Of a DNA stretch of 11,370 nucleotides, positions 1 to 11,370 are shown piece by piece. The notes under the pieces were generated by a model. It ran no database searches. It saw only the letters and a program-made list of their open reading frames with translations, and was not told the origin of the DNA. The stretch spans positions 1 to 11,370 of IMG/VR virus record IMGVR_UViG_2585427766_000010; one strand, 5' to 3'. Source of the stretch: a virus. Its lineage: Duplodnaviria > Heunggongvirae > Uroviricota > Caudoviricetes. Each line of letters starts with the position of its first letter. Within the stretch, counting starts at the first letter, position 1. The position numbers and the translations under genes were made by a program.

Positions 1-46
1 CCGCCCACGCAATATTGCCTTCAATTATATTGTGAGAACCGCATAA
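1..46 (+). CDS. Tail fiber protein, extreme C-terminal end only (5' part lies upstream of the window); cassette Sv_c
   Basis: Frame starting at base 2 reads RPRNIAFNYIVRTA then TAA at 44-46, matching the last 14 residues of the two minus-strand fiber cassettes (TRPRNIAFNYIVRAA, TRPRNVAFNYIVRAA). The stop overlaps the tfa ATG at 46 (TAATG). Confidence 0.6.
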   Translation, partial: RPRNIAFNYIVRTA

Positions 47-657
47 TGAATAACGCGATATTAAATGATGACCTTATTGCCGTACAGGCAGGAAACATCG
101 TCGTTTATAACTATGATGGTGAGACACGGGAATATATTTCCGAATCAACTGAATATCTTGCTGTGGGTGTCGGTATTCCGGCAAATTCCTGTTTAGATGC
201 CCCGGGCGCACATAAAGCGGGCTATGCTATCCGCCGTTCGGAGAATTTAAGTTCATGGGAGTATGCGCCAGACCATCGTGGTGAAACCGTCTATAGCACT
301 GACACGGGAAACACCGAAGAAATCACGGCGCTGGGTGACTACCCGAAAACTACAACCACTATCGCCCCGTTAACACCATACGATAAATGGGATGGTGAAA
401 AATGGGTGACAGATACTGAGGCACAACATCGTGCCGCAGTAGAAGCGGCAGAAACCAAGCGCCAGTCACTGGCTGATGCGGCAATGGCTTCCATAAGTCT
501 GATTCAGTTGAAGTTGCAGGCCGGGCGGAAGTTGACGCAGGCAGAAACCACCCGGCTTAATGCCGTGCTGGATTATATAGACGCGCTGAACGCAATGGAT
601 ATAAACATGGTACCAGATATCAACTTGCCGGAAATACCACTGGCAGCAGCCAGTTGA
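46..657 (+). CDS. Tail fiber assembly protein (Tfa; lambda Tfa / Mu U-like chaperone)
   Basis: 203-aa ORF with ATG at 46 and TGA at 655-657. Motifs typical of the Tfa family as I recall them: PDHRGETVY, KWDGEKWVTDTEAQ, and a C-terminal ...MVPDINLPEIP segment. It follows a fiber C-terminus on the same strand with start/stop overlap. Confidence 0.88.
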   Translation: MNNAILNDDLIAVQAGNIVVYNYDGETREYISESTEYLAVGVGIPANSCLDAPGAHKAGYAIRRSENLSSWEYAPDHRGETVYSTDTGNTEEITALGDYPKTTTTIAPLTPYDKWDGEKWVTDTEAQHRAAVEAAETKRQSLADAAMASISLIQLKLQAGRKLTQAETTRLNAVLDYIDALNAMDINMVPDINLPEIPLAAAS

Positions 658-663
658 ATATAA

Positions 664-1140
664 CTAAGCCGCCCTCACGATATAGTTAAATGCAATATTG
701 CGGGGGCGGGTTTCACTACCACCTGTGTTACCAATACTTCCTCGTGAATGAAGCGTTGGTGATGGAATCAAACTCCCTCCTGTATTTGTGGCATCAAGCC
801 CCCTGCCTTGTGTATATGTTTTTTTGAAAATCGTAGCCAACTCCCATTCATCTTTTGTGTCATATCCATCGTTAGCTACAACAATATGGCGGTGTTTTTC
901 CAACATCCCGTTTTGAATGCTCAATAAAGCGCGTGCCGCATCAATTCCTCGCCCATCATCCCAGCCACGGATAAATTCACCGCGTAAATCCGGTAATTTA
1001 TTGGTGGGGTAGGCCTTTGCCAGATTGGGGTACATTTCAGAAGAAAATGCTGCACCGTTACATTTCAGCCAGCCCGTTGGTGGTGTGGCTGAGGGCCATG
1101 GAACAGGCACACCAACGGGCAGTGCAGAGCCTTCCCCCAA
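664..1140 (-). CDS. Alternative tail-fiber C-terminal cassette (Sv_b): promoterless, start-less copy of the fiber distal domain
   Basis: The open frame runs from a stop at 1162-1164 down to TAG at 664-666. The track start at 1140 is a TTG with no Shine-Dalgarno upstream. The first ~65 aa (GLGEGSALPVGVPVPWPSATPPTGWLKCNGAAFSSEM...LPDLRGEFIRGWDDGRG) are near-identical to residues ~219-285 of the upstream fiber; the middle diverges; the last 15 aa are conserved again. Confidence 0.6.
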   Translation of the reverse strand: MGEGSALPVGVPVPWPSATPPTGWLKCNGAAFSSEMYPNLAKAYPTNKLPDLRGEFIRGWDDGRGIDAARALLSIQNGMLEKHRHIVVANDGYDTKDEWELATIFKKTYTQGRGLDATNTGGSLIPSPTLHSRGSIGNTGGSETRPRNIAFNYIVRAA

Positions 1141-1145
1141 ACCAA
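926..1145 (-). repeat. Direct repeat copy A (~220 bp), 5' homology block of cassette Sv_b
   Basis: Aligned by eye against 1440-1659 at a constant 514-bp offset; roughly 88-90% identical, differences mostly transitions. Homology stops abruptly at both ends. Confidence 0.8.
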
Positions 1146-1157
1146 CGTTTTCATGCG
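1132..1157. other. Candidate serine-invertase crossover site (site 2), 12-2-12 layout TTCCCCCAAACC-AA-CGTTTTCATGCG
   Basis: Sits exactly at the upstream edge of the cassette homology and spans the fiber stop codon. The left half-site matches the TTCnnnnAAACC pattern of hix/gix/cix sites as I remember them; the right half-site is degenerate. Confidence 0.4.
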
Positions 1158-2305
1158 GCTCTTACGATGTAATTAAATGCAACGTTGCGAGGGCGAGTTT
1201 CTGTACCTACATTTCCACTAATTTCACCAAACCGTCTTACATTACGAGAGCTAATGGCTCGTAGTGAGGAAGGCACCTTTAAACCGGGTTCGTCTGTTTT
1301 AACTATTCCCCCGTCCCCGTATGTAGCCAGTATTCCAGGGTTTACTCCTTCCCGTGTGCTTCCCGTGGCAAGTCCATCCCCGGTCCATAATTCCATATAG
1401 TGTGCATGATCCAAAATTGTGTGTGGCTGCCAATTAAGCAAAGCGCGGCCAGCATCCACCCCGCGCCCATCATCCCAGCCGCGAATAAATTCTCCCCGTA
1501 AATCCGGTAATTTATTGGCGGGGTAGGCCTTTGCCAGATTGGGGGACATTTCAGAAGAAAATGCTGCACCGTTACATTTCAGCCACCCCGTTGGCGGCGT
1601 GGCTGAAGGCCATGGAACGGGCACACCAACGGGCAGCGCCGAGCCTTCCCCTAAACCAAGGTAATTGAGGACTTCTTTTATACTGCCCATAGCGATAATA
1701 GCGCGACCAATAGCTGTAAGGGTTGTCAGTGCTGCGCGGTCTGCTCCGGTAAAATAAGGCAACCGATCTGCTGCAGTGGCAAGTCCTGCCAGAGCAGTGA
1801 GCGTGGCATCTGCCGGTTGTTTTCCGTTTGCCAGATCGTATGCAGCCTTGACCGCTTTCGGTGTGGCGGCCAGTATTTCAGACGTGCTGTTGATGTCACT
1901 GCTCAATTGTACGGTGCCTTTTGCCGTCAGCGAGGCAGCAGGCACTCCCGTTATCTGACTCCACGGGTGAGTATGGCTGACGGGGGCCTTGCCGGCAGCC
2001 AGGTCATATGCAGCCTTGACGGCCTTTGGTGTGGCGGCCAGCGTTTCAGAGGTGCTGTTGGTGGCACTGCTCAGTTGGGTGAACCCCTTAGCTGTCAGTG
2101 TCGCGTCCGGGTGGTTACGGGAACGTACGTGTTCAGCCAGTGACTGTGCGGCTTCCTCCGTTTTTTTCTTCAGCCATTTCGTCCTGTTTGCCAGTTGCCG
2201 GGGGGCTCGATTTGATATCCCGTCTGCACCACCCAGAACCGGATCTGATGTCTCCAGTTGATAGATATTTTCTTCCCACTTTTCTGTTTCATTCAGGTTT
2301 CCCAT
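1151..2305 (-). CDS. Tail fiber protein (Sc constant part plus Sv_a distal cassette)
   Basis: Long ORF with stop TGA at 1151-1153. Preferred start is the ATG at 2305-2303, which has GGGAG 9 nt upstream; the track start (TTG at 2311) is too close to that GGGAG to be likely. Contains two copies of the phage fiber repeat (LTAKG..QLSS...STSE.LAATPKAVKAAYDLA.GK) and a collar-like domain (WLKCNGAAF...LPDLRGEFIRGWDDGRG). Confidence 0.88.
   Translation of the reverse strand: MGNLNETEKWEENIYQLETSDPVLGGADGISNRAPRQLANRTKWLKKKTEEAAQSLAEHVRSRNHPDATLTAKGFTQLSSATNSTSETLAATPKAVKAAYDLAAGKAPVSHTHPWSQITGVPAASLTAKGTVQLSSDINSTSEILAATPKAVKAAYDLANGKQPADATLTALAGLATAADRLPYFTGADRAALTTLTAIGRAIIAMGSIKEVLNYLGLGEGSALPVGVPVPWPSATPPTGWLKCNGAAFSSEMSPNLAKAYPANKLPDLRGEFIRGWDDGRGVDAGRALLNWQPHTILDHAHYMELWTGDGLATGSTREGVNPGILATYGDGGIVKTDEPGLKVPSSLRAISSRNVRRFGEISGNVGTETRPRNVAFNYIVRAA
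1440..1659 (-). repeat. Direct repeat copy B (~220 bp), 5' homology block of cassette Sv_a inside the fiber gene
   Basis: Partner of 926-1145; same orientation, 514 bp apart. Confidence 0.8.
1646..1671. other. Candidate serine-invertase crossover site (site 1), TTCCCCTAAACC-AA-GGTAATTGAGGA, at the Sc/Sv_a junction
   Basis: Same left half-site and AA core as site 2; the right half (GGTAATTGAGGA) partly matches the GGTTTnnGAnAA pattern. Lies in the same codon phase as site 2 relative to the cassette frames (core in codon positions 2-3 of ...NYL / ...ENV before GLGEGS). Confidence 0.45.
1820..2098 (-). repeat. Tandem in-frame repeat inside the fiber shaft (two units, period 168 bp / 56 aa)
   Basis: tgcagccttgac recurs at 1841 and 2009; the encoded units LTAKGFTQLSSATNSTSETLAATPKAVKAAYDLAAGK and LTAKGTVQLSSDINSTSEILAATPKAVKAAYDLANGK match the common phage tail fiber repeat. 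Confidence 0.75.
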
Positions 2306-2307
2306 AA

Positions 2308-2886
2308 TCAACTGCTCCCGTGGTTATAACTGCCATCATGGATGGCGGTATTGTTATAGCGAATGGCCACAGACTGATACTCCAGGCTGGCCAGATGGCA
2401 GCGGGCCGGTGCAAATGCAGCCAGCGTCTGACGCAGCATCGCGGCCTGATCGTTAGTAATGGGCTGTTTCAGAATAACGCGATAAACTGCCCAGGCGGCT
2501 GCATCTCCATGAACAAACAGTCCGTTATAGCTGCGATTGCCGTCGTAACTGAGACGACCTGTGCCTTCAATCAGATCCACTTCACCAAAGCCAAAACGGC
2601 GGATAACTTCCCGGATTGACCACGGCGTCCCTTTATACCGGTGCAGTTCGATGGCTGCTTTTATAAGCATGCGGCGAACATCGTCCGATTCCGCCAGCTC
2701 CCAGCCATCGCCAGACAGTGAGAACTGCTCGCCCAGCCATGGCAGCGCGGAACTGTCGACGATATCGACGAGAAAGACCATCAGTACGCTCAGGTCGATG
2801 TTATCCAGCCGTCCTGCCAGTCTTCCCAGCGTCCTGAGACTGATATCACCCTCAAGCGGTGGCGGGAGTTGTAATGGCTCAGTCAT
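2308..2886 (-). CDS. Baseplate/tail protein, P2 gpI-like (Mu gp48-like)
   Basis: 192-aa ORF, ATG at 2886-2884 with GGAG upstream. Its stop overlaps the fiber start region and its start overlaps the gpJ 3' end by 8 bp. Size and position (between the J-like gene and the fiber) fit gpI. Confidence 0.8.
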   Translation of the reverse strand: MTEPLQLPPPLEGDISLRTLGRLAGRLDNIDLSVLMVFLVDIVDSSALPWLGEQFSLSGDGWELAESDDVRRMLIKAAIELHRYKGTPWSIREVIRRFGFGEVDLIEGTGRLSYDGNRSYNGLFVHGDAAAWAVYRVILKQPITNDQAAMLRQTLAAFAPARCHLASLEYQSVAIRYNNTAIHDGSYNHGSS

Positions 2887-3982
2887 CAGACACTCCAGTC
2901 ATGTTAAGAGTGATTGCCGTACAGTTTGCCCATTCGTTTTCTGCCACCACCCGCAGTGCCGGTGTCACCAGTTCAACCTGGTACACCCCGGAAACGGACA
3001 ATGCACTGATAATCTGGCTGGGGACAATATCGCGCCCCAGCGTGGCGGCACGTGATGCCACCCAGTTCTGTATGGCGCTGTTAGCGGCATCTTTTACAGA
3101 CCTGGCATCCTGATCACGATAGATCGTAATCTTGGCTTCAATGGTGTAATCCACCTTCACTGGTGTTTTAGCCCGCACTGTATCAGTGAGTGGCCTGACT
3201 TTCTCATCAGAGCAGAAACTCTCTACCAGCGTGAGAACACCGCCGTCCGGCAGACCGGTACTGAGCAGCGGATACAGATCTACGGTCCCGGGAACCGGGG
3301 AAAGCACAGCAACATCGACAATGTTGGGATGGGCCTGCATGGCATGAAAGCGGTATGCGCCACGGCTTCCGGCATTGGTGAATGACTCCGGGGCCAGCCT
3401 GATACGCTCCCGGAGCCTGTCATCGTCTTCCTGTTCTGAACCGCCGGAACTGGCCGTCAGATTGCTCACCAGCAGGTCGACGTTATCAATCTCATCGAGT
3501 AACTGACTGACCTGCGCAGGTTGCCAGCCGTTACCAGCGGTACCGGGTTCGGTACAGGTGGACGTGACATTGACCAGCAGCAATCCGGCCTTCAGTACCA
3601 CATCTGTATCGGTGGCAAAAATAACGCTGTCGGAAGCGCTGACGCGGGTGCCTGCCGGGATCAGCACATCAATGGCCAGTGCCTCATCTACGGAGAACTG
3701 GAGCGTGGTAGTGGCAGGCTGCGCGGCAAGACGGTATACACCGACCAGTTCACCGAGGTAATCAATCATCGGCTCACGGGCAAAGGCGACCAGATTCTGC
3801 TTTGCTGCCTCCTGTACCGCAACCCTGACCAGCATTTCGCGATAGGCCCACAGATCAATCAGCAGACGTTCTGCCTGTGCCGGGTACAGCGTTTTGCCGG
3901 TATCCGCTTCATACTTCGCAATCATTTCTGCCGTGATTTTGTCGGCATCGCGTTCAATAAAATCGGGTTCTGTCAGCGCCAT
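2879..3982 (-). CDS. Baseplate J-like protein (P2 gpJ / Mu gp47 family)
   Basis: 367-aa ORF, ATG at 3982-3980 with AGGAG upstream. Position between W-like and I-like genes and size are typical of baseplate wedge J proteins. Confidence 0.85.
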   Translation of the reverse strand: MALTEPDFIERDADKITAEMIAKYEADTGKTLYPAQAERLLIDLWAYREMLVRVAVQEAAKQNLVAFAREPMIDYLGELVGVYRLAAQPATTTLQFSVDEALAIDVLIPAGTRVSASDSVIFATDTDVVLKAGLLLVNVTSTCTEPGTAGNGWQPAQVSQLLDEIDNVDLLVSNLTASSGGSEQEDDDRLRERIRLAPESFTNAGSRGAYRFHAMQAHPNIVDVAVLSPVPGTVDLYPLLSTGLPDGGVLTLVESFCSDEKVRPLTDTVRAKTPVKVDYTIEAKITIYRDQDARSVKDAANSAIQNWVASRAATLGRDIVPSQIISALSVSGVYQVELVTPALRVVAENEWANCTAITLNMTGVSDD

Positions 3983-4320
3983 AGCAGCTCCTGAGTCCGG
4001 GTCTGTCCGTCTGAGCCTTTCCAGCTCACCCGGAGCGTAAGATGTTCGCCGTCGACGGCGGGTTTAACTGACATAAGCTGGCAGCGGGGCTCCCAGCGCC
4101 GGATGGCATCGACGGATTCGCGCACCACATGCGGAATGGCCCGGTCTACAGGCCAGTCGATATAAAGATGCAGATTGCTGCCGAACTCCGGGCGATGCGG
4201 GTCGCTGCCGCGGGGAGTCCGCAGGATAATTTGAATCGCCTGCCGGATATCATCCAGCCCCCGGACAATTTCGCCGGGAGCCTGCAGGGTCGGTTGCCAG
4301 AATACTGAGGTTGTTTTCAT
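3973..4320 (-). CDS. Baseplate wedge protein, GPW/gp25-like (P2 gpW / Mu gp46 family)
   Basis: 115-aa ORF, ATG at 4320-4318. Size and the ...IRQAIQIILRTPRGSDPHRPEFGSNLH... segment resemble the GPW/gp25 family; overlaps the J-like gene by 10 bp. Confidence 0.8.
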   Translation of the reverse strand: MKTTSVFWQPTLQAPGEIVRGLDDIRQAIQIILRTPRGSDPHRPEFGSNLHLYIDWPVDRAIPHVVRESVDAIRRWEPRCQLMSVKPAVDGEHLTLRVSWKGSDGQTRTQELLWR

Positions 4321-4374: not shown

Positions 4375-4971
4375 TCAGTGGGAGTGGTGGCTGGAGTTTT
4401 CGCCATCAGACAACATACTGCCCGTGGCATGGGCATTCCCTTTAATCTCGATATTGCCATGGATGGTCGCGGTAACCCCTTCACCACCAGAACCCGCCAT
4501 GCCTCCTTCGTAAATCAGCTTACCCCTGACACGCAGATCTCCGGTAAGTTCGGTTTCCGGTGCGTCAATCGTGGCTTTCTGTGTTTTCAATACCACATCA
4601 GCACCACACTCAATGACAATATGCTCAATGCCGCCCCGGATGGTCAGAGTGTGCGTCTTCCGGTTGTAGCTGTACTCTGCACCATCAGCAAACCGGGTTC
4701 CCCGGATATTTTTGTCACTGAACGGTGGTTTATCGACGTCTGAATACACCGCGCCCAGAATAACACCATCCTCGCCGTTGGCATCGAGCAGCACCTCAAC
4801 CTGCTCCCCCACGTCAGGGAGCCAGTAATCTTTGTTATCCTGGGTATTGCGCTGCAGCACGTTAAGCCAGTTTGTGCGCAGGTTATCGCATTCAGGCAGA
4901 CGAACGCGGGCCTGAACCCTGTCGGCATCAACGGCACTGACCGTACCGACCTGACGAGTGACACCAGTCAT
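4375..4971 (-). CDS. Baseplate assembly/spike protein V (P2 gpV / Mu gp45 family)
   Basis: 198-aa ORF, ATG at 4971-4969 with AAGGAG upstream and ATGA overlap with the gpD-like stop. The ...WLPDVGEQVEVLLDANGEDGVILGAVYSD... N-domain and a C-terminal spike region resemble gpV. Confidence 0.82.
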   Translation of the reverse strand: MTGVTRQVGTVSAVDADRVQARVRLPECDNLRTNWLNVLQRNTQDNKDYWLPDVGEQVEVLLDANGEDGVILGAVYSDVDKPPFSDKNIRGTRFADGAEYSYNRKTHTLTIRGGIEHIVIECGADVVLKTQKATIDAPETELTGDLRVRGKLIYEGGMAGSGGEGVTATIHGNIEIKGNAHATGSMLSDGENSSHHSH

Positions 4972-6122
4972 TTTTTCTTCTCCTTAATCACCGTCGATGT
5001 ACTGCCATCCGGGTGATAAACCGTGAGTTTCTGAGTTTTTTGTTTTTTCCCTCTTGTGACTGGCCCCCGTGCCACTTCCAGCTCTGTGGTGTAGCCGCTG
5101 TTACGGTCAAACGCATGGCGGGCAGTGGTTATGAGCCATGGCCCGGATAACTGCCCAAAACCCACCAGTTCAATTTTGTTGCCTGCTGTCAGTTGAGGTG
5201 TTCCCGTCAGCGTCAGGGAGCCGTTCTGCTGGTATTCGTTATGTCTGGCCAGTGCTGAATCCGCTTTAATCCGGGCACTGTCCGGGTCGCTGACGCGGCT
5301 GTTAACTTTAAGTGAGTCAGCGCTGGTAACCTTACCACCTTTGAGCTTTTTGTCGCTTTCACGGGTACCACCATCAGCTTCGTAGACGATCAGTTTTTTA
5401 CTGCTGCTTTTCTGGTGTTTTACCTTTGCAGATTTATAGACCCGGTTGATGGTGTCACGCAGGGAAAAGCGGGCCACATCCTGCGGTTTTAACTGCCTGA
5501 CCGGCTCCTGACTGCGCAGTGTGGCCAGATGAGAAAAAATCAGCTGGTCACTGACCACTTTCACTGCATAACCATACTCGCTGGCCAGCCGGCGCAGAAA
5601 ACCCACGTCGGTTTCAGCATACTGGGTCACCCGGTCGATTCTGATGGACTCAATGCTGCCCACCAGTTTCAGTCGGTGCTTTCTGGCAATCCGCCCCGCA
5701 ACAGCTGCCAGCGTGGTGTTCTCAAAACCACGACTGGTTTTAGTCCGCAGGGCACTGTTAACCGAGGTGGCCACCCCACGGATAGAAACAACGGAAGCGG
5801 GCGAACTCACTTCGATCTCGTCTATAGAGAACGTACCGCAGGACAGCAGCTTCTCGCCCTGATAGCCCATTTTCAGCGTCAGCGTGTCACCCTTGCCCGG
5901 ATACCATTTATCCAGCCAGCGGCCATCGGTGTCGTCCAGCTCCACCTCAATGGTATCGGACTCATTTTTGATGTTATCGCTCCAGGTCACACGGGTGACA
6001 TAAGGCGCGATATCAGAGGTGATGTTTTTCTGCAGATACCACAAAGTGAACACCGGTGTCAGCACATCGCTGACGCCGGTTAACGCTGATGTGACTTGCG
6101 CAGTGCTGTTTATCTCAGCCAT
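4968..6122 (-). CDS. Late control gene D-like tail protein (baseplate hub; P2 gpD / Mu gp44 family)
   Basis: 384-aa ORF, ATG at 6122-6120. Size and position immediately upstream of gpV are characteristic; Lys-rich C-terminus. Confidence 0.82.
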   Translation of the reverse strand: MAEINSTAQVTSALTGVSDVLTPVFTLWYLQKNITSDIAPYVTRVTWSDNIKNESDTIEVELDDTDGRWLDKWYPGKGDTLTLKMGYQGEKLLSCGTFSIDEIEVSSPASVVSIRGVATSVNSALRTKTSRGFENTTLAAVAGRIARKHRLKLVGSIESIRIDRVTQYAETDVGFLRRLASEYGYAVKVVSDQLIFSHLATLRSQEPVRQLKPQDVARFSLRDTINRVYKSAKVKHQKSSSKKLIVYEADGGTRESDKKLKGGKVTSADSLKVNSRVSDPDSARIKADSALARHNEYQQNGSLTLTGTPQLTAGNKIELVGFGQLSGPWLITTARHAFDRNSGYTTELEVARGPVTRGKKQKTQKLTVYHPDGSTSTVIKEKKK

Positions 6123-6322
6123 GGGGCAATATCCTCTTCTGTACGGGCTTCTTCAGCCTCAATCACCGGGATCAGTAACAACAGCCCGGAGGGCAGCACC
6201 GGCGTGATGGCCACGTGCGGATTGGCGGCAATAATCCGGGGATAGCCCAGCGGGTCACCGTAGTACTGCCATGCCAGCGAATCCCAGCGCTCTCCGTCAC
6301 GGGTAACATGTTCAAGAAACAT
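6110..6322 (-). CDS. Tail protein X-like (P2 gpX family, LysM-like)
   Basis: About 70 aa. Preferred start is the ATG at 6322-6320 (the track's 6325 start is GTG). The ...WDSLAWQYYGDPLGYPRIIAANP...LPSG...IPVIE pattern resembles gpX; 1-bp overlap with the upstream gene's stop (TGATG). Confidence 0.7.
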   Translation of the reverse strand: MFLEHVTRDGERWDSLAWQYYGDPLGYPRIIAANPHVAITPVLPSGLLLLIPVIEAEEARTEEDIAPWLR

Positions 6323-7206
6323 CACACACTCCTCGTCAGTATTCTGGCGGCCATTGCACTTAATCCCGGAGACATGCGGTTGAATGCTGTGCCGGCGGCG
6401 TTAAGCTGCCCGGAAACGGTATCCAGAGCATCTGCAATATTTCTTTTGTCCACACCACTCAGCGCAGACTGTGCCTGCTGTACATACGTGGCTGCTTCGC
6501 TGGCTGTTCTGGCCAGACTGATGGCATCGGGCATGGATTCAGAGAGTGCGTTAAACGCCGGAACACTTTTCCCCAGAGCCCCGGAGATATTACCCAGTCC
6601 GCTCATCAGCCCCGGCACACGGGTCAGTGCGACAACGGGGTTATCCTTCATTTTCTGTGTCACCCGAACGGCGCTGATAGTGGTCTGGAGTACAGACTGC
6701 GCCTGTTTCGCATAGTTGACGCCGTTGCGGATGAACTGCGCCACCCCTGAAGGTGAAGGTATGGCACCGGAGACCGCCCCGACACCCGGGAGCTTCGTGC
6801 GTATTGCCGGTGGTTGCAGAGGATTTTTCGGGTCACCGGTGTATTCCCGGAGAGACACGGTGGCACTGACAGCCAGCACGTTGCCGGTACTGTCAGTCTG
6901 CTCGCTGGTTGCAGTCACATCGGTAATCACGAACCAGCCGCGATAGTCACCGTTGCCGAAGACCAGCGCCAGTGCCTGATGGGCTTTCATGGCTGTTCGC
7001 AGTCTCGCCAGCTCCACATCGGGTACACAATAATGCTGATGGAAAACCAGAGTTATCTGGATTTCGTCCAGCCTGTCGCCGACGAACTGCAGGCCAGGCT
7101 TACCCCCGATGCGGGCATGCTCCGCATAATCGACGCCGAACGTGGCCTCGAAGCCGTCCCAGTAGGTAATCAGCTCAAACTCAATATCACCCAGTACGGC
7201 AAACAT
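6322..7206 (-). CDS. Tail protein with P2 gpU-like N-terminal domain and an Ala/Ser-rich C-terminal extension
   Basis: 294-aa ORF, ATG at 7206-7204, abutting the tape measure stop. The N-terminal ~130 aa (MFAVLGDIEFELITYWDG...GLQFVGDRLDEIQITLVFHQ) resemble gpU; the C-terminal ~160 aa are low-complexity. Confidence 0.65.
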   Translation of the reverse strand: MFAVLGDIEFELITYWDGFEATFGVDYAEHARIGGKPGLQFVGDRLDEIQITLVFHQHYCVPDVELARLRTAMKAHQALALVFGNGDYRGWFVITDVTATSEQTDSTGNVLAVSATVSLREYTGDPKNPLQPPAIRTKLPGVGAVSGAIPSPSGVAQFIRNGVNYAKQAQSVLQTTISAVRVTQKMKDNPVVALTRVPGLMSGLGNISGALGKSVPAFNALSESMPDAISLARTASEAATYVQQAQSALSGVDKRNIADALDTVSGQLNAAGTAFNRMSPGLSAMAARILTRSV

Positions 7207-9106
7207 CAGCGGTACTCCTTACGTTGTTTCTGAGCCAGCAGACGCTCCAGCATTTTTTCCAGCTCATGCAGACTCATATTCAGGGCACCAGTCAGTCCTG
7301 CAGGCGCTGTGGTTTCCCTGCCATTGAGGAAAAACTGAGGATTAAAGCTGACCTGGATACCACCAGACGTTCCACCGCCGGTTGCAGCTGCACCACGGCC
7401 TGAATATCCGGCAGCCAGGATTTCAGGCGAGGGGATACGGGGAACATCCGGTGTCATCTCATTTGCCAGACGTTGCCCTGGTAAAATCGATGCCCGGGTG
7501 GAGAGCGGAATAGCGGGCATGGAAGACAAACTATTGATTACGGCTCCGATCGCATTTTTAGCAGACGACATAAACCCATTGATATCGGGCAACGGCATAC
7601 TGAAGCGAACACCTGAAGTGTTATCCCGTATTTCTGGCCCCTGGATGCTCACGGGCATTCTGGGGAGCAGTTCACTGGCCATTCGCTGCCCGGCCAGAGC
7701 TGCAAGCGGAGTGGTCCGCTGCAGGCCAATGGCGGCCCCCTGCGCGATATTGTCACCAAAGCCCATAAACACGCGGCTCGGCGAATGAATGCCCAGCTTT
7801 TCGCTGAACCAGCCACTGATGCTGTCACCCATTCCGGTTACACTGGATTTGAGCGACTCCCATTTGTTTTTGATACCGTTAATCAGACCATCGACAAGAT
7901 GGCCACCGAAGTCGGTAAACTTTGCCGGCAGATCAACACCAAGATATTTCAGCGCAGCTGCAAAGGCTTTATAGAGCAGGCCTGCCGGCGACCAGTTAAT
8001 CAGTAACTTACCAATTCCCACAATGCCGCCGTTAAAGGCTTCCTGAATGTCTGCCCAGCGCTGTTTAAACCAGCCACTGACTGCCCCCCAGTTGCGGTAG
8101 ATAAGGTAAGCTGCTGCCGCGACAGCGGTGATAACGAGACCGATGGGATTCATCATCAGCGCACGTCCAATCCAGAGAACAGCACGTCCGGCGAGCATAA
8201 TTCCGCGAACCAGCCCCTCGGAGAGCACGCCACTCAGTGTTCTGGCTCCTCTGGCGACGGCGCTAAATCCGGTCACCAGCCAGCGGAGCTTACCGCCTTG
8301 CCCCAGTGCGAGCGACAGACGAAGCCAGTTGGCCCGAAGTAAAACAGCATTTTTCCAGACACTTACAAAGGGGGAAATAAGGAGATTCAGCCCCAGTTTG
8401 AGACCAACAGTCGCTATCTTAATCGCAAGGAGCGCACTGATGAGCTTAAAAGCCCCACTGACAAATTGCGGGTGAGTCGCTACCCAGTGTTTTGCCCCCT
8501 GAATGAGTGGAAGCAGTTCCTGAGTCAAAGAAATAAAAGATGGAGCTAATTGATCGCCCAGCGTAATTGCCAGATCGCGACTGCTGACCATAAGTGTTTT
8601 AGTGGCTTCAAGGGGAGATTTCAGCCGCTGATCATAAGCACTGGCAAGCAAATCGTTATCCGCAGCCCTGAGAGCACCGGCACGGATCTCTCGATATCTG
8701 TCCATGTTGGCCAGCATCGGGCGGATAAATGCCATGACCTGCATATCCGCGAACATATCGCCCAGACCAAAGTTTTTCGCCAGAGCCTGAAGTGCCTCAT
8801 CTCTTGCCGTATCATTCTTTATTTTCATGGCTGATTTGAAGCCGGCCAGCGCTTCGGGGCTTTTGGCATTGAGGTAACGTTCTATAACACTCAACATCCC
8901 TTCAATCGGAGAGATCCCCGCAGCTTTATAACTCGCAATAGATCCCTGCAAATCAATACCCAGATCAGCAAACTGTTTCTGAGTATCGCGGGCAAAAATT
9001 TTGGTAAGAAAGTTTTTAAAATTATTGGCTGCTTCGTCGGTGGAACCTGCACCGATTTTTGCTATCTGGAGACTGGCCCCGATTTCAGCAACAGCCTCTT
9101 TTCCAC
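7206..9106 (-). CDS. Tail tape measure protein, 5'-interrupted by the IS66-family insertion (probable pseudogene/fragment)
   Basis: Stop TGA at 7208-7206. The frame is open upstream well past the track start (TTG at 8951) to about 9106, where the sequence becomes the IS end (in-frame stop at 9155-9153 inside the IS). Contains the GIHSPSRVF-type motif and long hydrophobic helices typical of tape measure proteins. Confidence 0.75.
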
Positions 9107-9192
9107 TGTAAGCGTAAAGCCAATGCCGTCTGTAACACCTGCTCCTTGCAGACTAAATTAGAGCTCCTTCTAAATTAGACGGAGTTCTATTG

Positions 9193-9627
9193 ATGGATAA
9201 ACCTACAGACTGGCGCTCCGGAACCCGCCGGATATTTTCTAATGAATTTAAACTTCATATGGTTGAACTGGCTTCGAAACCAAATGCCAATGTTGCACAA
9301 CTGGCCCGGGAACATGGCGTTGATAACAACCTGATTTTTAAATGGCTACGCCTCTGGCAAAGAGAAGGACGTATTTCTCGTAGAATGCCTCCAACTATTG
9401 TAGGCCCTACAGTATCACAATCTTTTCCGGCCTCTCCGACTCTGGTTCCAGTGGAACTTATCGACACCCCGCGCTGTGCTACAGATGCTCCTGCTCCGGA
9501 GGCATTATCAGTTGCTTGTGCAGCTTCCTGCCATGTGGAATTCCATTACGGTAAAATGATGCTGGAAAATCCTTCACCAGAGCTGCTCACGGTGTTGATC
9601 CGTGAGCTGACCGGGAGGGGACGATGA
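9193..9627 (+). CDS. tnpA: IS66-family accessory protein TnpA (orf1)
   Basis: ATG at 9193 with GGAG 8 nt upstream (the track start at 9190 is TTG); about 144 aa. Stop overlaps the tnpB start (ATGA at 9624-9627). Confidence 0.8.
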   Translation: MDKPTDWRSGTRRIFSNEFKLHMVELASKPNANVAQLAREHGVDNNLIFKWLRLWQREGRISRRMPPTIVGPTVSQSFPASPTLVPVELIDTPRCATDAPAPEALSVACAASCHVEFHYGKMMLENPSPELLTVLIRELTGRGR

Positions 9628-9974
9628 TTTCACTCCCATCAGGTACCCGTATCTGGCTCGTTGCCGGCGTTACTGATATGCGTAAATCCTTCAACGGTCT
9701 GGGGGAGCAGATACAGCATGTGCTGGATGATAACCCCTTCTCCGGTCACCTGTTTATCTTCCGTGGCCGACGGGGAGACACGATTAAAATCCTGTGGGCT
9801 GATGCTGATGGTCTGTGCCTGTTCACCAAACGCCTTGAGGAAGGTCAGTTTATCTGGCCTGCGGTGCGTGACGGTAAGATATCCATTACCCGCTCGCAAC
9901 TGGCAATGCTCCTCGATAAGCTGGACTGGCGTCAGCCAAAAACATCCCGCCTTAACGCACTGACAATGTTGTAA
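9624..9974 (+). CDS. tnpB: IS66-family accessory protein TnpB (orf2)
   Basis: 116 aa; MISLPSGTRIWLVAGVTDMRKSFNGL...IKILWADADGLCLF... is the characteristic IS66 Orf2 sequence as I recall it. Confidence 0.85.
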   Translation: MISLPSGTRIWLVAGVTDMRKSFNGLGEQIQHVLDDNPFSGHLFIFRGRRGDTIKILWADADGLCLFTKRLEEGQFIWPAVRDGKISITRSQLAMLLDKLDWRQPKTSRLNALTML

Positions 9975-10004
9975 AAAACTCCTGACCGCATTATAAAAAC
10001 GGCC

Positions 10005-11370
10005 ATGAGTCAGAAATACCTCATTCGCATCGCTGAGCTGGAAAGGCTGCTCTCTGAGCAGGCTGAAGCCCTCCGTCAGAAAGACCAGCAACTGAGTCTG
10101 GTTGAAGAGACGGAGGCCTTCCTGCGCTCTGCACTGGCACGTGCCGAAGAAAAGATCGAAGAAGATGAACGGGAAATAGAGCATCTGCGGGCTCAGATAG
10201 AAAAACTGCGCCGGATGCTGTTCGGAACCCGTTCTGAAAAACTGCGTCGTGAGGTTGAACAGGCTGAAGCCCTGCTGAAACAACGCGAGCAGGAAAGCGA
10301 TCGTTACAGTGGGCGTGAGGATGACCCGCTGGTTCCCCGCCAGTTGCGACAGTCGCGCCATCGTCGTCCGTTACCGGCACATCTCCCCCGTGAAATATAC
10401 CGCCTGGAGCCTGAAGAAAGCTGTTGCCCGGAGTGTGGCGGTGAGCTGGATTATCTGGGGGAAGTCAGCGCAGAACAACTGGAACTGGTGAGCAGCGCCC
10501 TGAAAGTGATCCGCACAGAACGGGTAAAAAAAGCCTGTACAAAATGTGACTGCATCGTTGAAGCACCGGCACCATCCCGTCCGATAGAGCGTGGTATCGC
10601 GGGCCCGGGGTTACTTGCCCGCGTGTTAACGGGAAAATACTGCGAACACCTGCCACTGTATCGTCAGAGTGAAATCTTTGCCCGCCAGGGTGTCGAACTG
10701 AGCCGTGCCTTACTCTCCAACTGGGTTGATGCGTGCTGCCAGTTAATGACGCCGCTGAATGATGCCCTGTACAGTTATGTGATGAACACCCGCAAGGTTC
10801 ACACTGATGACACACCAGTAAAAGTACTGGCACCGGGCAGGAAGAAGGCGAAAACAGGATATATCTGGACGTATGTCCGGGATGACCGAAATGCCGGTTC
10901 GCCAGAACCTCCGGCGGTCTGGTTCGCCTACTCACCGGACCATCAGGGTAAACATCCGGAGCAACACCTTCGTCCCTTCCGGGGTATCCTGCAGGCAGAT
11001 GCGTTCGCAGGTTACGATCGGCTGTTCAGTGCCGAACGTGAAGGCGGCGCGTTGACGGAAGCAGGATGCTGGGCTCATGCGCGGCGCAAAATCCACGATG
11101 TATATATCAGTACCAAAAGCGCGACGGCGGAAGAAGCACTGAAACTAATCGGCGAACTGTACGCCATTGAGCACGAAATACGCGGGTTGCCGGTGTCTGA
11201 ACGCCTGGCGGTCAGGCAAATGCAGAGTAAACCGCTACTGACTTCCCTGTATAAGCTGATGCAGGAGAAAGAACACACGTTATCGAAAAAATGCCGTCTG
11301 AGAGATGCGTTCCGGTATATCAGGAAGCACTGGGTTGCGTTGTGCAACTTCTGTGATGACGGTCTGGCGG
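10005..11370 (+). CDS. tnpC: IS66-family transposase TnpC (orf3), 3'-partial (runs off the window)
   Basis: ATG at 10005, open to the end of the window (over 455 codons), so absent from the stop-delimited ORF track. Has an N-terminal coiled-coil/leucine-zipper-like region and a CPECGG...CTKCDC zinc-ribbon motif, as in IS66 transposases. Confidence 0.8.
   Translation, partial: MSQKYLIRIAELERLLSEQAEALRQKDQQLSLVEETEAFLRSALARAEEKIEEDEREIEHLRAQIEKLRRMLFGTRSEKLRREVEQAEALLKQREQESDRYSGREDDPLVPRQLRQSRHRRPLPAHLPREIYRLEPEESCCPECGGELDYLGEVSAEQLELVSSALKVIRTERVKKACTKCDCIVEAPAPSRPIERGIAGPGLLARVLTGKYCEHLPLYRQSEIFARQGVELSRALLSNWVDACCQLMTPLNDALYSYVMNTRKVHTDDTPVKVLAPGRKKAKTGYIWTYVRDDRNAGSPEPPAVWFAYSPDHQGKHPEQHLRPFRGILQADAFAGYDRLFSAEREGGALTEAGCWAHARRKIHDVYISTKSATAEEALKLIGELYAIEHEIRGLPVSERLAVRQMQSKPLLTSLYKLMQEKEHTLSKKCRLRDAFRYIRKHWVALCNFCDDGLA

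Follow-up and report, generated by a model that had tools for sequence, protein, structure and literature searches.

A silent cassette behind a prophage tail-fibre gene is probably one of three exchangeable ends in a multiple-inversion switch of a published kind

Introduction

The Mu G (Gin), P1 C (Cin) and e14 P (Pin) systems exchange a C-terminus in frame at sites of a common 26-bp design; each holds two cassettes, each with its own tfa gene (U, U′), and has two states. Din-family systems also include an enhancer of recombination that depends on Fis and mostly sits within the 5′ portion of the invertase gene. The Min system of plasmid p15B has six sites and 240 isomers, and combines a Din-family serine invertase with one constant 5′ part of a tail-fibre gene and alternative 3′ cassettes, some of which need successive inversions. 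Multiple inversions also choose a C-terminal end in the R64/IncI shufflon, there of the adhesin PilV, through the tyrosine recombinase Rci and 19-bp sfx repeats in the conjugative pilus gene pilV.

Two Escherichia coli prophages are close to the locus analysed here. The P2-like prophage of E2348/69 (E. coli O127:H6) has three 215-bp inverted repeats, a big and a small inversion, and three alternative C-termini (PMC4272514). Four variants coexist in culture, where they were detected by sequencing and validated by PCR (Goldberg et al. 2014, PMC4272514). PacBio reads of EC958 revealed a 2,067-bp inversion at 26-bp sites in prophage Phi2 (Forde et al. 2014, PMC4134206).

Here we analysed the whole of a viral draft contig of 11,370 nucleotides (IMG/VR record IMGVR_UViG_2585427766_000010; hereafter the window), both ends of which lie in repeated DNA. 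An exact protein look-up matched the window to the whole of contig JOQO01000076.1 of assembly GCA_000714135.1. We conclude, with a probability of about 0.9, that Sv_b, a silent cassette in this window, belongs to a set of three receptor-binding cassettes that replace one another through a Gin/Pin/Min-type multiple-inversion switch in the tail-fibre gene of an E. coli prophage with a P2-type tail.

Results

Organisation of the tail-fibre locus

The tail-fibre gene comes after P2-type J and I genes and is called, in its expressed form, at 1151-2305 (384 aa; Table 1). Its constant part, Sc, contains two Phage_fiber_2 repeats (PF03406, E 6.5e-38), and the fibre also matches the Collar family (PF07484). 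Read in the direction of the tail genes, Sc is followed by Sv_a and then by Sv_b in the same orientation, and beyond these by tfa and Sv_c in the opposed orientation, an order that would be state A of the proposed switch.

Table 1. Positions of the tail-fibre cassettes, repeats and crossover sites in the window
Feature	Position	Strand	Description
Sv_c 3′ end	1..45	+	last 14 codons + stop of the third cassette, inverted orientation; inverted repeat I1
tfa	46..657	+	tail-fibre assembly gene (PF02413, E 8.9e-31)
Sv_b	664..1143	-	silent C-terminal cassette, direct orientation, 159 aa + stop
Repeat copy, proximal, in Sv_b	926..1148	.	encodes conserved collar part
Crossover site 2 (Sv_a end / Sv_b)	1132..1157	-	CGCATGAAAACG TT GGTTTGGGGGAA, core 1144-1145
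Sv_a	1151..1657	-	now-expressed C-terminal cassette, 168 aa + stop
Repeat copy, proximal, in Sv_a	1440..1662	.	201/223 identical to 926..1148
Crossover site 1 (Sc / Sv_a)	1646..1671	-	TCCTCAATTACC TT GGTTTAGGGGAA, TT core 1658-1659
Sc	1660..2305	-	constant 5′ part of tail-fibre gene

The invertible segment has tfa as its sole tail-fibre assembly gene, which is convergent with Sv_b and coupled to Sv_c by a stop/start overlap (TAATG); a PDB sequence search with tfa returned no relative. In states A and C this gene is antisense to the fibre gene; fibres ending in Sv_a or Sv_b would lack a cis-encoded chaperone. Of Sv_c the window contains just the final 45 nt, and it shows no site 3 and no invertase gene; these, and the remainder of Sv_c, would lie beyond the window end, and a complete Sv_c is present in a sister locus (L002). 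An IS66-family element interrupts the tape-measure gene at 9108/9109, which makes phage production, and hence the current selective value of switching, doubtful here.

Repeats, register and crossover sites

A repeat search of the window found a single direct repeat family, comprising two 223-nt copies with 90% identity and a spacing of 514; the 514-bp offset had been noticed in an earlier, sequence-only reading. The copies differ about every 10 nt, their longest perfect run is 40 nt, and their homology ends abruptly at both flanks. The copy in Sv_b corresponds to the 215-bp inverted repeats of PMC4272514, and its Sc-proximal end overlaps the core and right half of site 2. The earlier reading had treated the 514 bp as a repeat unit, but this is the length of the Sv_a module, made up of 507 nt of cassette with its stop codon and a further 7 nt before Sv_b begins, and is not the unit of a tandem duplication. 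Those 7 nt lie in the left half and core of site 2. Nor is the one-base shift in frame, which had been thought noteworthy, an independent observation, being merely what homologous coding sequence implies: the cassettes start at 1657 (1 mod 3) and 1143 (0 mod 3), a difference of 1 mod 3 like that of the offset (514 = 1 mod 3), and Sv_a and Sv_b therefore stand in equal register relative to the repeat.

Sites 1 and 2, together with the sites of the sister loci, match the sites and consensus tabulated in PMC4134206 and have the Din-type design of 26 bp, with two imperfectly symmetric 12-bp halves and a shared 2-bp core. The left half and core of site 1 are identical to the Phi2_5prime site of EC958 (Table 3, PMC4134206), and the homology of the window to the inverted sister locus L002 switches exactly at this site. 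Site 2, whose left half includes the Sv_a stop codon (TGA, 1151-1153), is of a type that joins cassettes in 42 IMG/VR loci, and its counterpart in E2348/69 is where the 'small inversion' has its left boundary. A further site in sister loci reads GAGAGATAAACG TT GGTTT(A/G)GGGGAA. The base next to the core is A in Sv_a and G in both Sv_b and Sv_c. When Sc was joined synthetically to Sv_b, the product was one 375-codon ORF (...EVLNYL/GLGEGS..., with the slash marking the join). The same join occurs naturally in E. coli cS51a (L003), bearing out the prediction that such a fusion would be in frame.

The silent cassette is intact and under purifying selection

The minus-strand frame of Sv_b is open from 1161 to 664 (165 codons), and the ORF listing gives 158 aa from a TTG at 1140, which lies inside crossover site 2; this ORF starts 10 nt past the Sv_a stop codon. 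We found no Shine-Dalgarno-like sequence upstream of this TTG, and a promoter/terminator scan of positions 1-2500 gave no signal above shuffled expectation, including none between Sv_a and Sv_b. The earlier description of 158 codons lacking both start codon and ribosome-binding site thus held for the open frame and the Shine-Dalgarno-like sequence, but not for the start, as the TTG is formally one.

Sv_b consists of a collar domain (PF07484, E 8.8e-15), a variable tip and the conserved C-terminal RPRNIAFNYIVRAA. The T4 gp37 tip structure 2XGF matches Sv_b (E 4.6e-17), and an NCBIfam search assigned none of the fibre, Sv_b and tfa to a named family. Compared with Sv_a, Sv_b is identical at 69/73 of the first residues, 21/69 in the middle part and 15/16 of the last residues, with 30% amino-acid identity between the variable regions. 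A dN/dS comparison of the two distal regions had been suggested, but is not meaningful at 30% identity with gaps; we therefore used orthologue pairs. For the distal part of Sv_b, the window compared with L008 or L015 gave Sd = 31.5, Nd = 3.5 and an omega of 0.02. Orthologues that have diverged to dS ~0.9 still show omega ~0.02, i.e. strong purifying selection. The identical 158-aa ORF is found on 302 contigs, and Sv_b is fused to Sc, and therefore expressed, in three sister loci (L003, L015 and L016). These results support the view that Sv_b is maintained as a functional swap-in cassette. The cross-genome comparison that had been proposed showed that relatives carry other isomers and mostly intact cassettes (36/36 in the first 14 loci, and 152 of the 158 complete cassettes in the 42 IMG/VR loci).

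All four isomers occur in related genomes

Each of the four predicted isomers is present in public genomes, and the reciprocal exchange falls precisely on the TT core. State A is represented by the window and the E2348/69 locus (L005), state B by L001, L002 and L004, state C by L003, and state D by L016 and also by L015, which has four cassettes; strain 2014EL-1343-2 has the fourth state. In DLI.5a the whole segment is inverted, giving Sc-Sv_c. L002 is the same prophage as that of the window (99.6% identical over 5.8 kb), and its positions 6001-7659 match window 1-1659 in inverted orientation at 99.94% identity. Here the left halves are swapped exactly at the TT (Sc-left/Sv_c and inv-left/Sv_a), and the third crossover site is present in this segment. 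The Sv_a cassette is silent and inverted in L001 and L002, where it adjoins the invertase gene. In cS51a, Sc is fused to an identical Sv_b (Sc-left/Sv_b, 100% identical to window 1-1145), and a cassette-end-left/Sv_c junction is also present, just as would be expected, in both topology and half-site exchange, after a second inversion. This locus keeps three cassettes, the third being Sv_d and not Sv_a; the isomer series is therefore pieced together from close relatives and not from one clone.

The fusions Sc-Sv_a (window), Sc-Sv_c (L002) and Sc-Sv_b (L003) are all in frame through ...NYL/GLGEGS.... As in a Min-type system, there are more than two crossover sites (up to 8 in relatives) and more than two isomers are realised, including that of the two-step cassette. 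In every sister locus examined, a 190-aa invertase adjoins the segment and matches the Gin structures 4M6F and 3UJ3 (E 2e-93). A scan with a generic site found only 8 loci. None of the complete E. coli genomes in the collection had this prophage's Sc-Sv_a junction at high identity, and the state-A junction had no exact match among species-representative genomes.

Proposed multiple-inversion switch

In the switch that we propose, each cassette begins with a 26-bp TT-core site followed by ~220 nt encoding the conserved collar domain. Site 3, off the contig, is predicted to be GAGAGATAAACGTTGGTTTGGGGGAA, followed by Sv_c, and a serine invertase, also off the contig, would recombine inverted site pairs only. 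Recombination between sites 1 and 3 would flip the whole ~2.08-kb segment to give Sc-Sv_c followed by tfa (state B), and recombination between sites 2 and 3 would flip the inner ~1.56-kb segment (state D). From B or D, a second inversion would bring together the Sc site and the Sv_b site to form an in-frame Sc-Sv_b (state C). As the earlier reading had argued, and as our analysis supports, directly oriented sites cannot be used by a classical invertase in one step; because Sc-Sv_b would arise only via B or D, Sv_b would be two inversions from expression. Of the two routes then put forward, sequential inversion as in Min is documented by the four isomers in public genomes and by the four E2348/69 variants of Goldberg et al., while RecA-dependent deletion is not needed. 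Inversion may still operate in this particular genome, with its IS-interrupted prophage.

Comparison with described systems

The locus of E2348/69 has the architecture of the window (Sc and Sv_e, then Sv_b, followed by opposed tfa and Sv_c and the invertase gene). Its Sv_b-tfa-Sv_c block is 97.7% identical to window 4-1196, its repeats are of 215-220 nt as in the window, and its inversions are likewise of about 2.0 and 1.6 kb. The two differ in the first cassette, which is the 143-aa Sv_e in E2348/69 and the 168-aa Sv_a in the window, and in Sc (with Sc repeats only ~77% identical) and the remaining prophage. The E2348/69 invertase is only 84% identical to that of the window's sister loci; in the window, in contrast, the invertase gene is off the contig and the prophage is IS-interrupted. 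EC958 Phi2 is a prophage of the same type, to which the window has 98.9% DNA identity over ~4.1 kb of the region. With L002 and L003 it shares an identical tail protein I, and with L002 an identical invertase; it also has the same 26-bp sites and a 227-bp imperfect inverted repeat. Unlike in the window, all three cassettes are of other types. Its authors described the two outer sites alone, but a middle site and a third cassette can be recognised in its sequence.

The window resembles the p15B Min system in the invertase family of its sister loci, in having more than two sites, and in its single constant part with alternative cassettes; it differs in having three sites and four isomers, a chromosomal prophage and a P2-type tail. 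Cassettes resembling Sv_a, Sv_b and Sv_c, at ~85% identity, occur on P1-like plasmids, which also have an invertase 99% identical to that of the window's prophage family. The invertase family of the sister loci, the 26-bp site design and the in-frame C-terminus exchange are shared with Mu G, P1 C and e14 P, but in the window the cassettes follow one another head to tail, and there is one tfa, which serves or accompanies just one of them. The R64/IncI shufflon resembles the window in its multiple inversions but is not homologous to it, and a switch of that type is ruled out by the serine invertase of the sister loci, the 26-bp gix-like sites and the tail-fibre target.

Alternative explanations for the silent cassette

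We considered whether RecA-dependent deletion between the two direct repeats of 220 nt might be the main way in which Sv_b is activated, with Sv_a lost irreversibly and Sc-Sv_b left behind. Homologous deletion is physically possible, because the repeats are direct, 90% identical and share a 40-nt perfect run, and many E. coli prophages with two cassettes (c-tfa-b; H13-H30, ~1.2 kb, and H45) could be its products. These forms may equally be ancestral, however, and in one of them (HSP60, H45) Sv_b is 100% b-like up to the site, with no a/b hybrid. L003 has Sc-Sv_b yet retains three cassettes in an inversion-type arrangement, and the variants reported for E2348/69 are inversions. Deletion would also destroy the switch and leave arrays of up to 8 intact cassettes unexplained. 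We therefore consider this route very unlikely. Less probable still is that Sv_b is translated by itself, giving a separate tail protein of 158 aa that starts at the TTG at 1140. RefSeq annotates such a CDS (e.g. WP_000503759.1), and with a 10-nt gap and no terminator-like site Sv_b would be co-transcribed with Sc-Sv_a. However, the TTG falls within a crossover site and has no Shine-Dalgarno-like sequence upstream, and the annotated start varies by genome (7140 in L002, 7122 in L001). Forde et al. regard such fragments as auto-annotation artefacts (PMC4134206), and in one source a member of the cluster is called 'alternative C-terminus of phage tail fiber protein'.

Two further explanations have, in our view, next to no chance of being correct. 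In one, the 3′ end of the gene was recently duplicated in tandem at this locus, and Sv_b is the functionless, decaying remnant; the copies are indeed in tandem, 10 nt apart, there is no ribosome-binding site, and the prophage is itself defective. With just 30% identity between their variable parts, though, Sv_b is not a recent duplicate of Sv_a, and this identity, the omega of ~0.02 at dS ~0.9 and the 302 contigs together refute a duplication relic, while elsewhere Sv_b is expressed as an Sc fusion. The other makes the order Sc-Sv_a-Sv_b an artefact of short-read assembly across the 220-nt repeats, in keeping with a window that is a whole draft contig with repeated DNA at both ends. Against this, the two repeats are told apart by a difference about every 10 nt, among them the base beside the core, and the finished genome of E2348/69 has the identical order, as have many IMG/VR contigs.

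Discussion

The multiple-inversion switch of which Sv_b would be a part appears real but ordinary, because the same architecture has already been shown experimentally in E2348/69. Both the mechanism and this very architecture have been published, and current understanding is unchanged.

Other readings go further, and taken jointly we consider them unlikely. The cassettes are intact and strongly conserved in a defective prophage, and the switch might be kept for the benefit of the host. By analogy, this would resemble the case of PinQ/e14, where inversion makes a chimeric fibre protein that blocks T2 adsorption (PMC12529663). Alternatively, the switch might arm a tailocin. The rule of 'one cassette, one chaperone' known from Mu and P1 may also not hold in this family, which has one tfa for up to 8 cassettes, and this tfa flips at every inversion. 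If so, most cassettes, including Sv_a and Sv_b, would fold without a cis-encoded Tfa.

The main value of the finding lies in annotation: the 158-aa 'phage tail protein' ORFs called across E. coli genomes are silent shufflon cassettes, at which draft assemblies break or freeze. The locus also shows how stacked modules of a site and a cassette turn a two-state switch into a multi-state switch, with three cassettes here and up to 8 in relatives, where more cassettes would mean a wider receptor range for the prophage or tailocin.

Sv_b belongs to a characterised tail-fibre shufflon

The window is one entire draft contig (11,370 bp; JOQO01000076.1 of GCA_000714135.1) with a P2-type tail module on its minus strand. 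In the tail-fibre gene, the constant 5′ part (Sc) is joined to the expressed C-terminal cassette Sv_a, and the frame of the silent cassette Sv_b begins 10 nt past the TGA stop. In the reference genome of E2348/69 (L005) the layout is the same, with Sc and a cassette followed by Sv_b in the same direction, opposed by the assembly gene tfa and a third cassette, Sv_c, and then the invertase; window positions 4-1196 are 97.7% identical to it. Its three 215-bp repeats (92% homology), with a big and a small inversion, were named a shufflon by Goldberg et al. 2014, who validated four coexisting variants by PCR and described three alternative C-termini (PMC4272514). The Sv_b locus is a member of this published, experimentally characterised system, and the sequence-only reading of it as a silent swap-in cassette was right overall.

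Features of the window
Feature	Position	Strand	Remarks
IS66-family element	9109-11370	plus
DDE_Tnp_IS66 gene	runs off contig	plus	IS66-family element
TnpB_IS66	9624-9974	plus	IS66-family element
HTH_Tnp_1 ORF	9190-9627	plus	IS66-family element
Tape-measure gene	7206-8951	minus
Genes for U-like, X and D proteins	between tape-measure gene and V	minus
V	4375-4971	minus
W	3973-4320	minus
J	2879-3982	minus
I	2308-2886	minus
Tail-fibre gene	1151-2305	minus	last of module; Phage_fiber_2 repeats and Collar domain
Sv_b	1143 to 664	minus	second Collar-domain reading frame (PF07484, E 8.8e-15)
tfa	46-657	plus	convergent with Sv_b
Sv_c	1-45		last 14 codons only; directly upstream of tfa

Within Sc, a 168-nt direct repeat (1821-1930 / 1989-2098, 78% identical) codes for Phage_fiber_2 repeats. 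Their copy number differs among sister prophages, with fibres of 384 aa in the window, 543 aa in cS51a (L003) and 599 aa in strain 2014EL-1343-2 (L016).

The tape-measure gene is cut at 9108/9109 by the IS66-family element, and the match to E. coli DLI.5a (L002), 100% over 6094-9108, ends there. Of the gene's 2,691 nt, just the 3′ 1,903 are left on this side of the junction, which makes the prophage defective. Both contig ends (1 and 11370) lie in repeated DNA, a cassette and an IS66-family transposase gene, respectively. Breaks at shufflon and IS repeats are typical of short-read assemblies, which is why many Sv_b and invertase cluster members are 'partial'.

Sv_b is distinct from Sv_a and is maintained

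As proposed from the sequence alone, Sv_b lies in a direct repeat at an offset of 514 nt (926-1148 / 1440-1662; 201/223 identical, longest perfect run 40 nt). The predicted in-frame fusion also held, since a synthetic join of Sc and Sv_b is a single open frame through ...EVLNYL/GLGEGS... (slash, junction). The accompanying point that the frames agree was correct (1657 - 1143 = 514, the same register in both copies), but this follows automatically because the copies are homologous. The two proteins share 69/73 N-terminal, 21/69 middle and 15/16 C-terminal residues; they are distinct specificity cassettes with common ends and not a fresh duplication.

Eight of eight Sv_b orthologues have equal length and an open frame, and the exact 158-aa ORF occurs on 302 contigs. 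Between the window and L008 (Escherichia sp. MOD1-EC7003) or L015 (a P1-like plasmid), the specificity region has 31.5 synonymous and 3.5 non-synonymous differences (dS 0.89, dN 0.018, omega 0.02). In one source, a member of its cluster carries the name 'alternative C-terminus of phage tail fiber protein'. These data support the proposal that Sv_b is maintained as a functional cassette. A decaying duplicate is excluded by the omega value and the low middle identity. Independent translation of Sv_b from a TTG within the crossover site is unsupported, because no Shine-Dalgarno-like sequence was found for it.

When the window's Sv_b (664-1143) is compared with its orthologues in L001, L002 and L005, the 220-nt proximal repeat and the distal part of the cassette show a several-fold difference in synonymous divergence (dS 0.18 and 0.035, respectively, for L001 vs L002), suggestive of gene conversion or exchange among repeats. 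Codon 38 of Sv_a (1544-1546, minus strand) encodes Ser, where 184/186 cassettes across all loci, including the otherwise identical Sv_a of L002, have Tyr (motif xYP), possibly a sign that the defective prophage is decaying.

Across 42 IMG/VR loci collected via the cassette-cassette junction, 152/158 complete cassettes were intact, in arrays of up to eight, the expressed cassette often being followed by several silent ones in direct orientation. Arrays of 7-8 cassettes with intact ORFs (L019 9438-13959, L025 1489-4835, L045 8976-11880) have more sites than the six of p15B Min.

Each shufflon has one tfa irrespective of cassette number (1 to 8; loci L001-L058), and its neighbour is always one kind of cassette, of the 153-aa Sv_c type at 25 loci and of a 171-aa type at 6. 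The gene lies where the cassettes converge, so each inversion flips it too; with the window's arrangement, tfa runs antisense to the fibre gene that is expressed.

Relatives carry four arrangements joined at 26-bp sites

Many E. coli genomes contain window 1-1659 with 96-99% identity, and the matches end at 1659-1662, where the core of site 1 lies (1658-1659, between Sc and Sv_a). DLI.5a carries the same prophage (99.6% identical across 5.8 kb) with the segment inverted at 99.94% identity: Sc is joined to Sv_c, then tfa, while Sv_b and Sv_a are reversed and adjoin the recombinase gene, and half-sites are exchanged exactly at TT. In cS51a, Sc is fused to Sv_b (100% identity to window 1-1145); from the invertase side, Sv_d and Sv_c in the same direction precede tfa, then Sv_b and Sc follow on the other strand, and the cassette-end left half now stands ahead of Sv_c. 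This is exactly what a second inversion, between the Sc and Sv_b sites, produces. The last of the arrangements, in which a silent cassette in direct orientation plus tfa comes after an expressed cassette, was found in 2014EL-1343-2 and the P1-like plasmid. The window is in state A (Sc-Sv_a), L001, L002 and L004 (EC958 Phi2) in B (whole segment inverted, Sc-Sv_c), L003 in C (Sc-Sv_b) and L016 in D (inner segment inverted).

On the minus strand, the Sc/Sv_a junction (site 1) reads TCCTCAATTACC TT GGTTTAGGGGAA and the Sv_a-end/Sv_b junction (site 2) CGCATGAAAACG TT GGTTTGGGGGAA, with the Sv_a stop codon inside the left half of site 2. Both are gix/cix/pix-type 26-bp recombination sites. For EC958 Phi2, Forde et al. 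published two crossover sites, TCCTCAATTACCTT GGTTTAGGAGAA and GAGAGATAAACGTT GGTTTGGGGGAA, and detected an inversion of 2,067 bp with PacBio reads (PMC4134206). L008 has three tandem sites with spacings of 514 and 487 nt.

Sequential inversion probably accounts for Sv_b expression

The invertase of sister loci (190 aa) matches Gin crystal structures (E 2e-93). EC958 Phi2 has the identical protein, and the enzymes of the P1-like plasmid and E2348/69 share 99% and 84% identity with it, respectively. The first of the two routes named in the sequence-only reading, sequential inversions, is borne out by the four states across relatives, the half-sites exchanged at TT and the E2348/69 experiments. 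RecA-dependent deletion between the repeats is a possible route to Sc-Sv_b, given their 40-nt identical run and the existence of two-cassette relatives, but it is irreversible, leaves cS51a and the large arrays unexplained, and is superfluous as an explanation. An assembly artefact is an unlikely source of the cassette order, given repeats that differ every ~10 nt and the recurrence of this order in finished genomes.

Switching in the window's own strain we only infer, since site 3 (on the Sv_c side) and the invertase lie beyond the contig end and the tape-measure gene is interrupted. One mobile and two fixed sites give exactly four states, and Sv_b expression is confined to state C, two inversions away from A. 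The sequence of EC958 Phi2 (L004 3552-4458) holds, beyond the two published sites, one between cassettes (GGCATAGAAACG TT GGTTT...) as well as a third cassette, also intact, so this prophage should likewise have four states.
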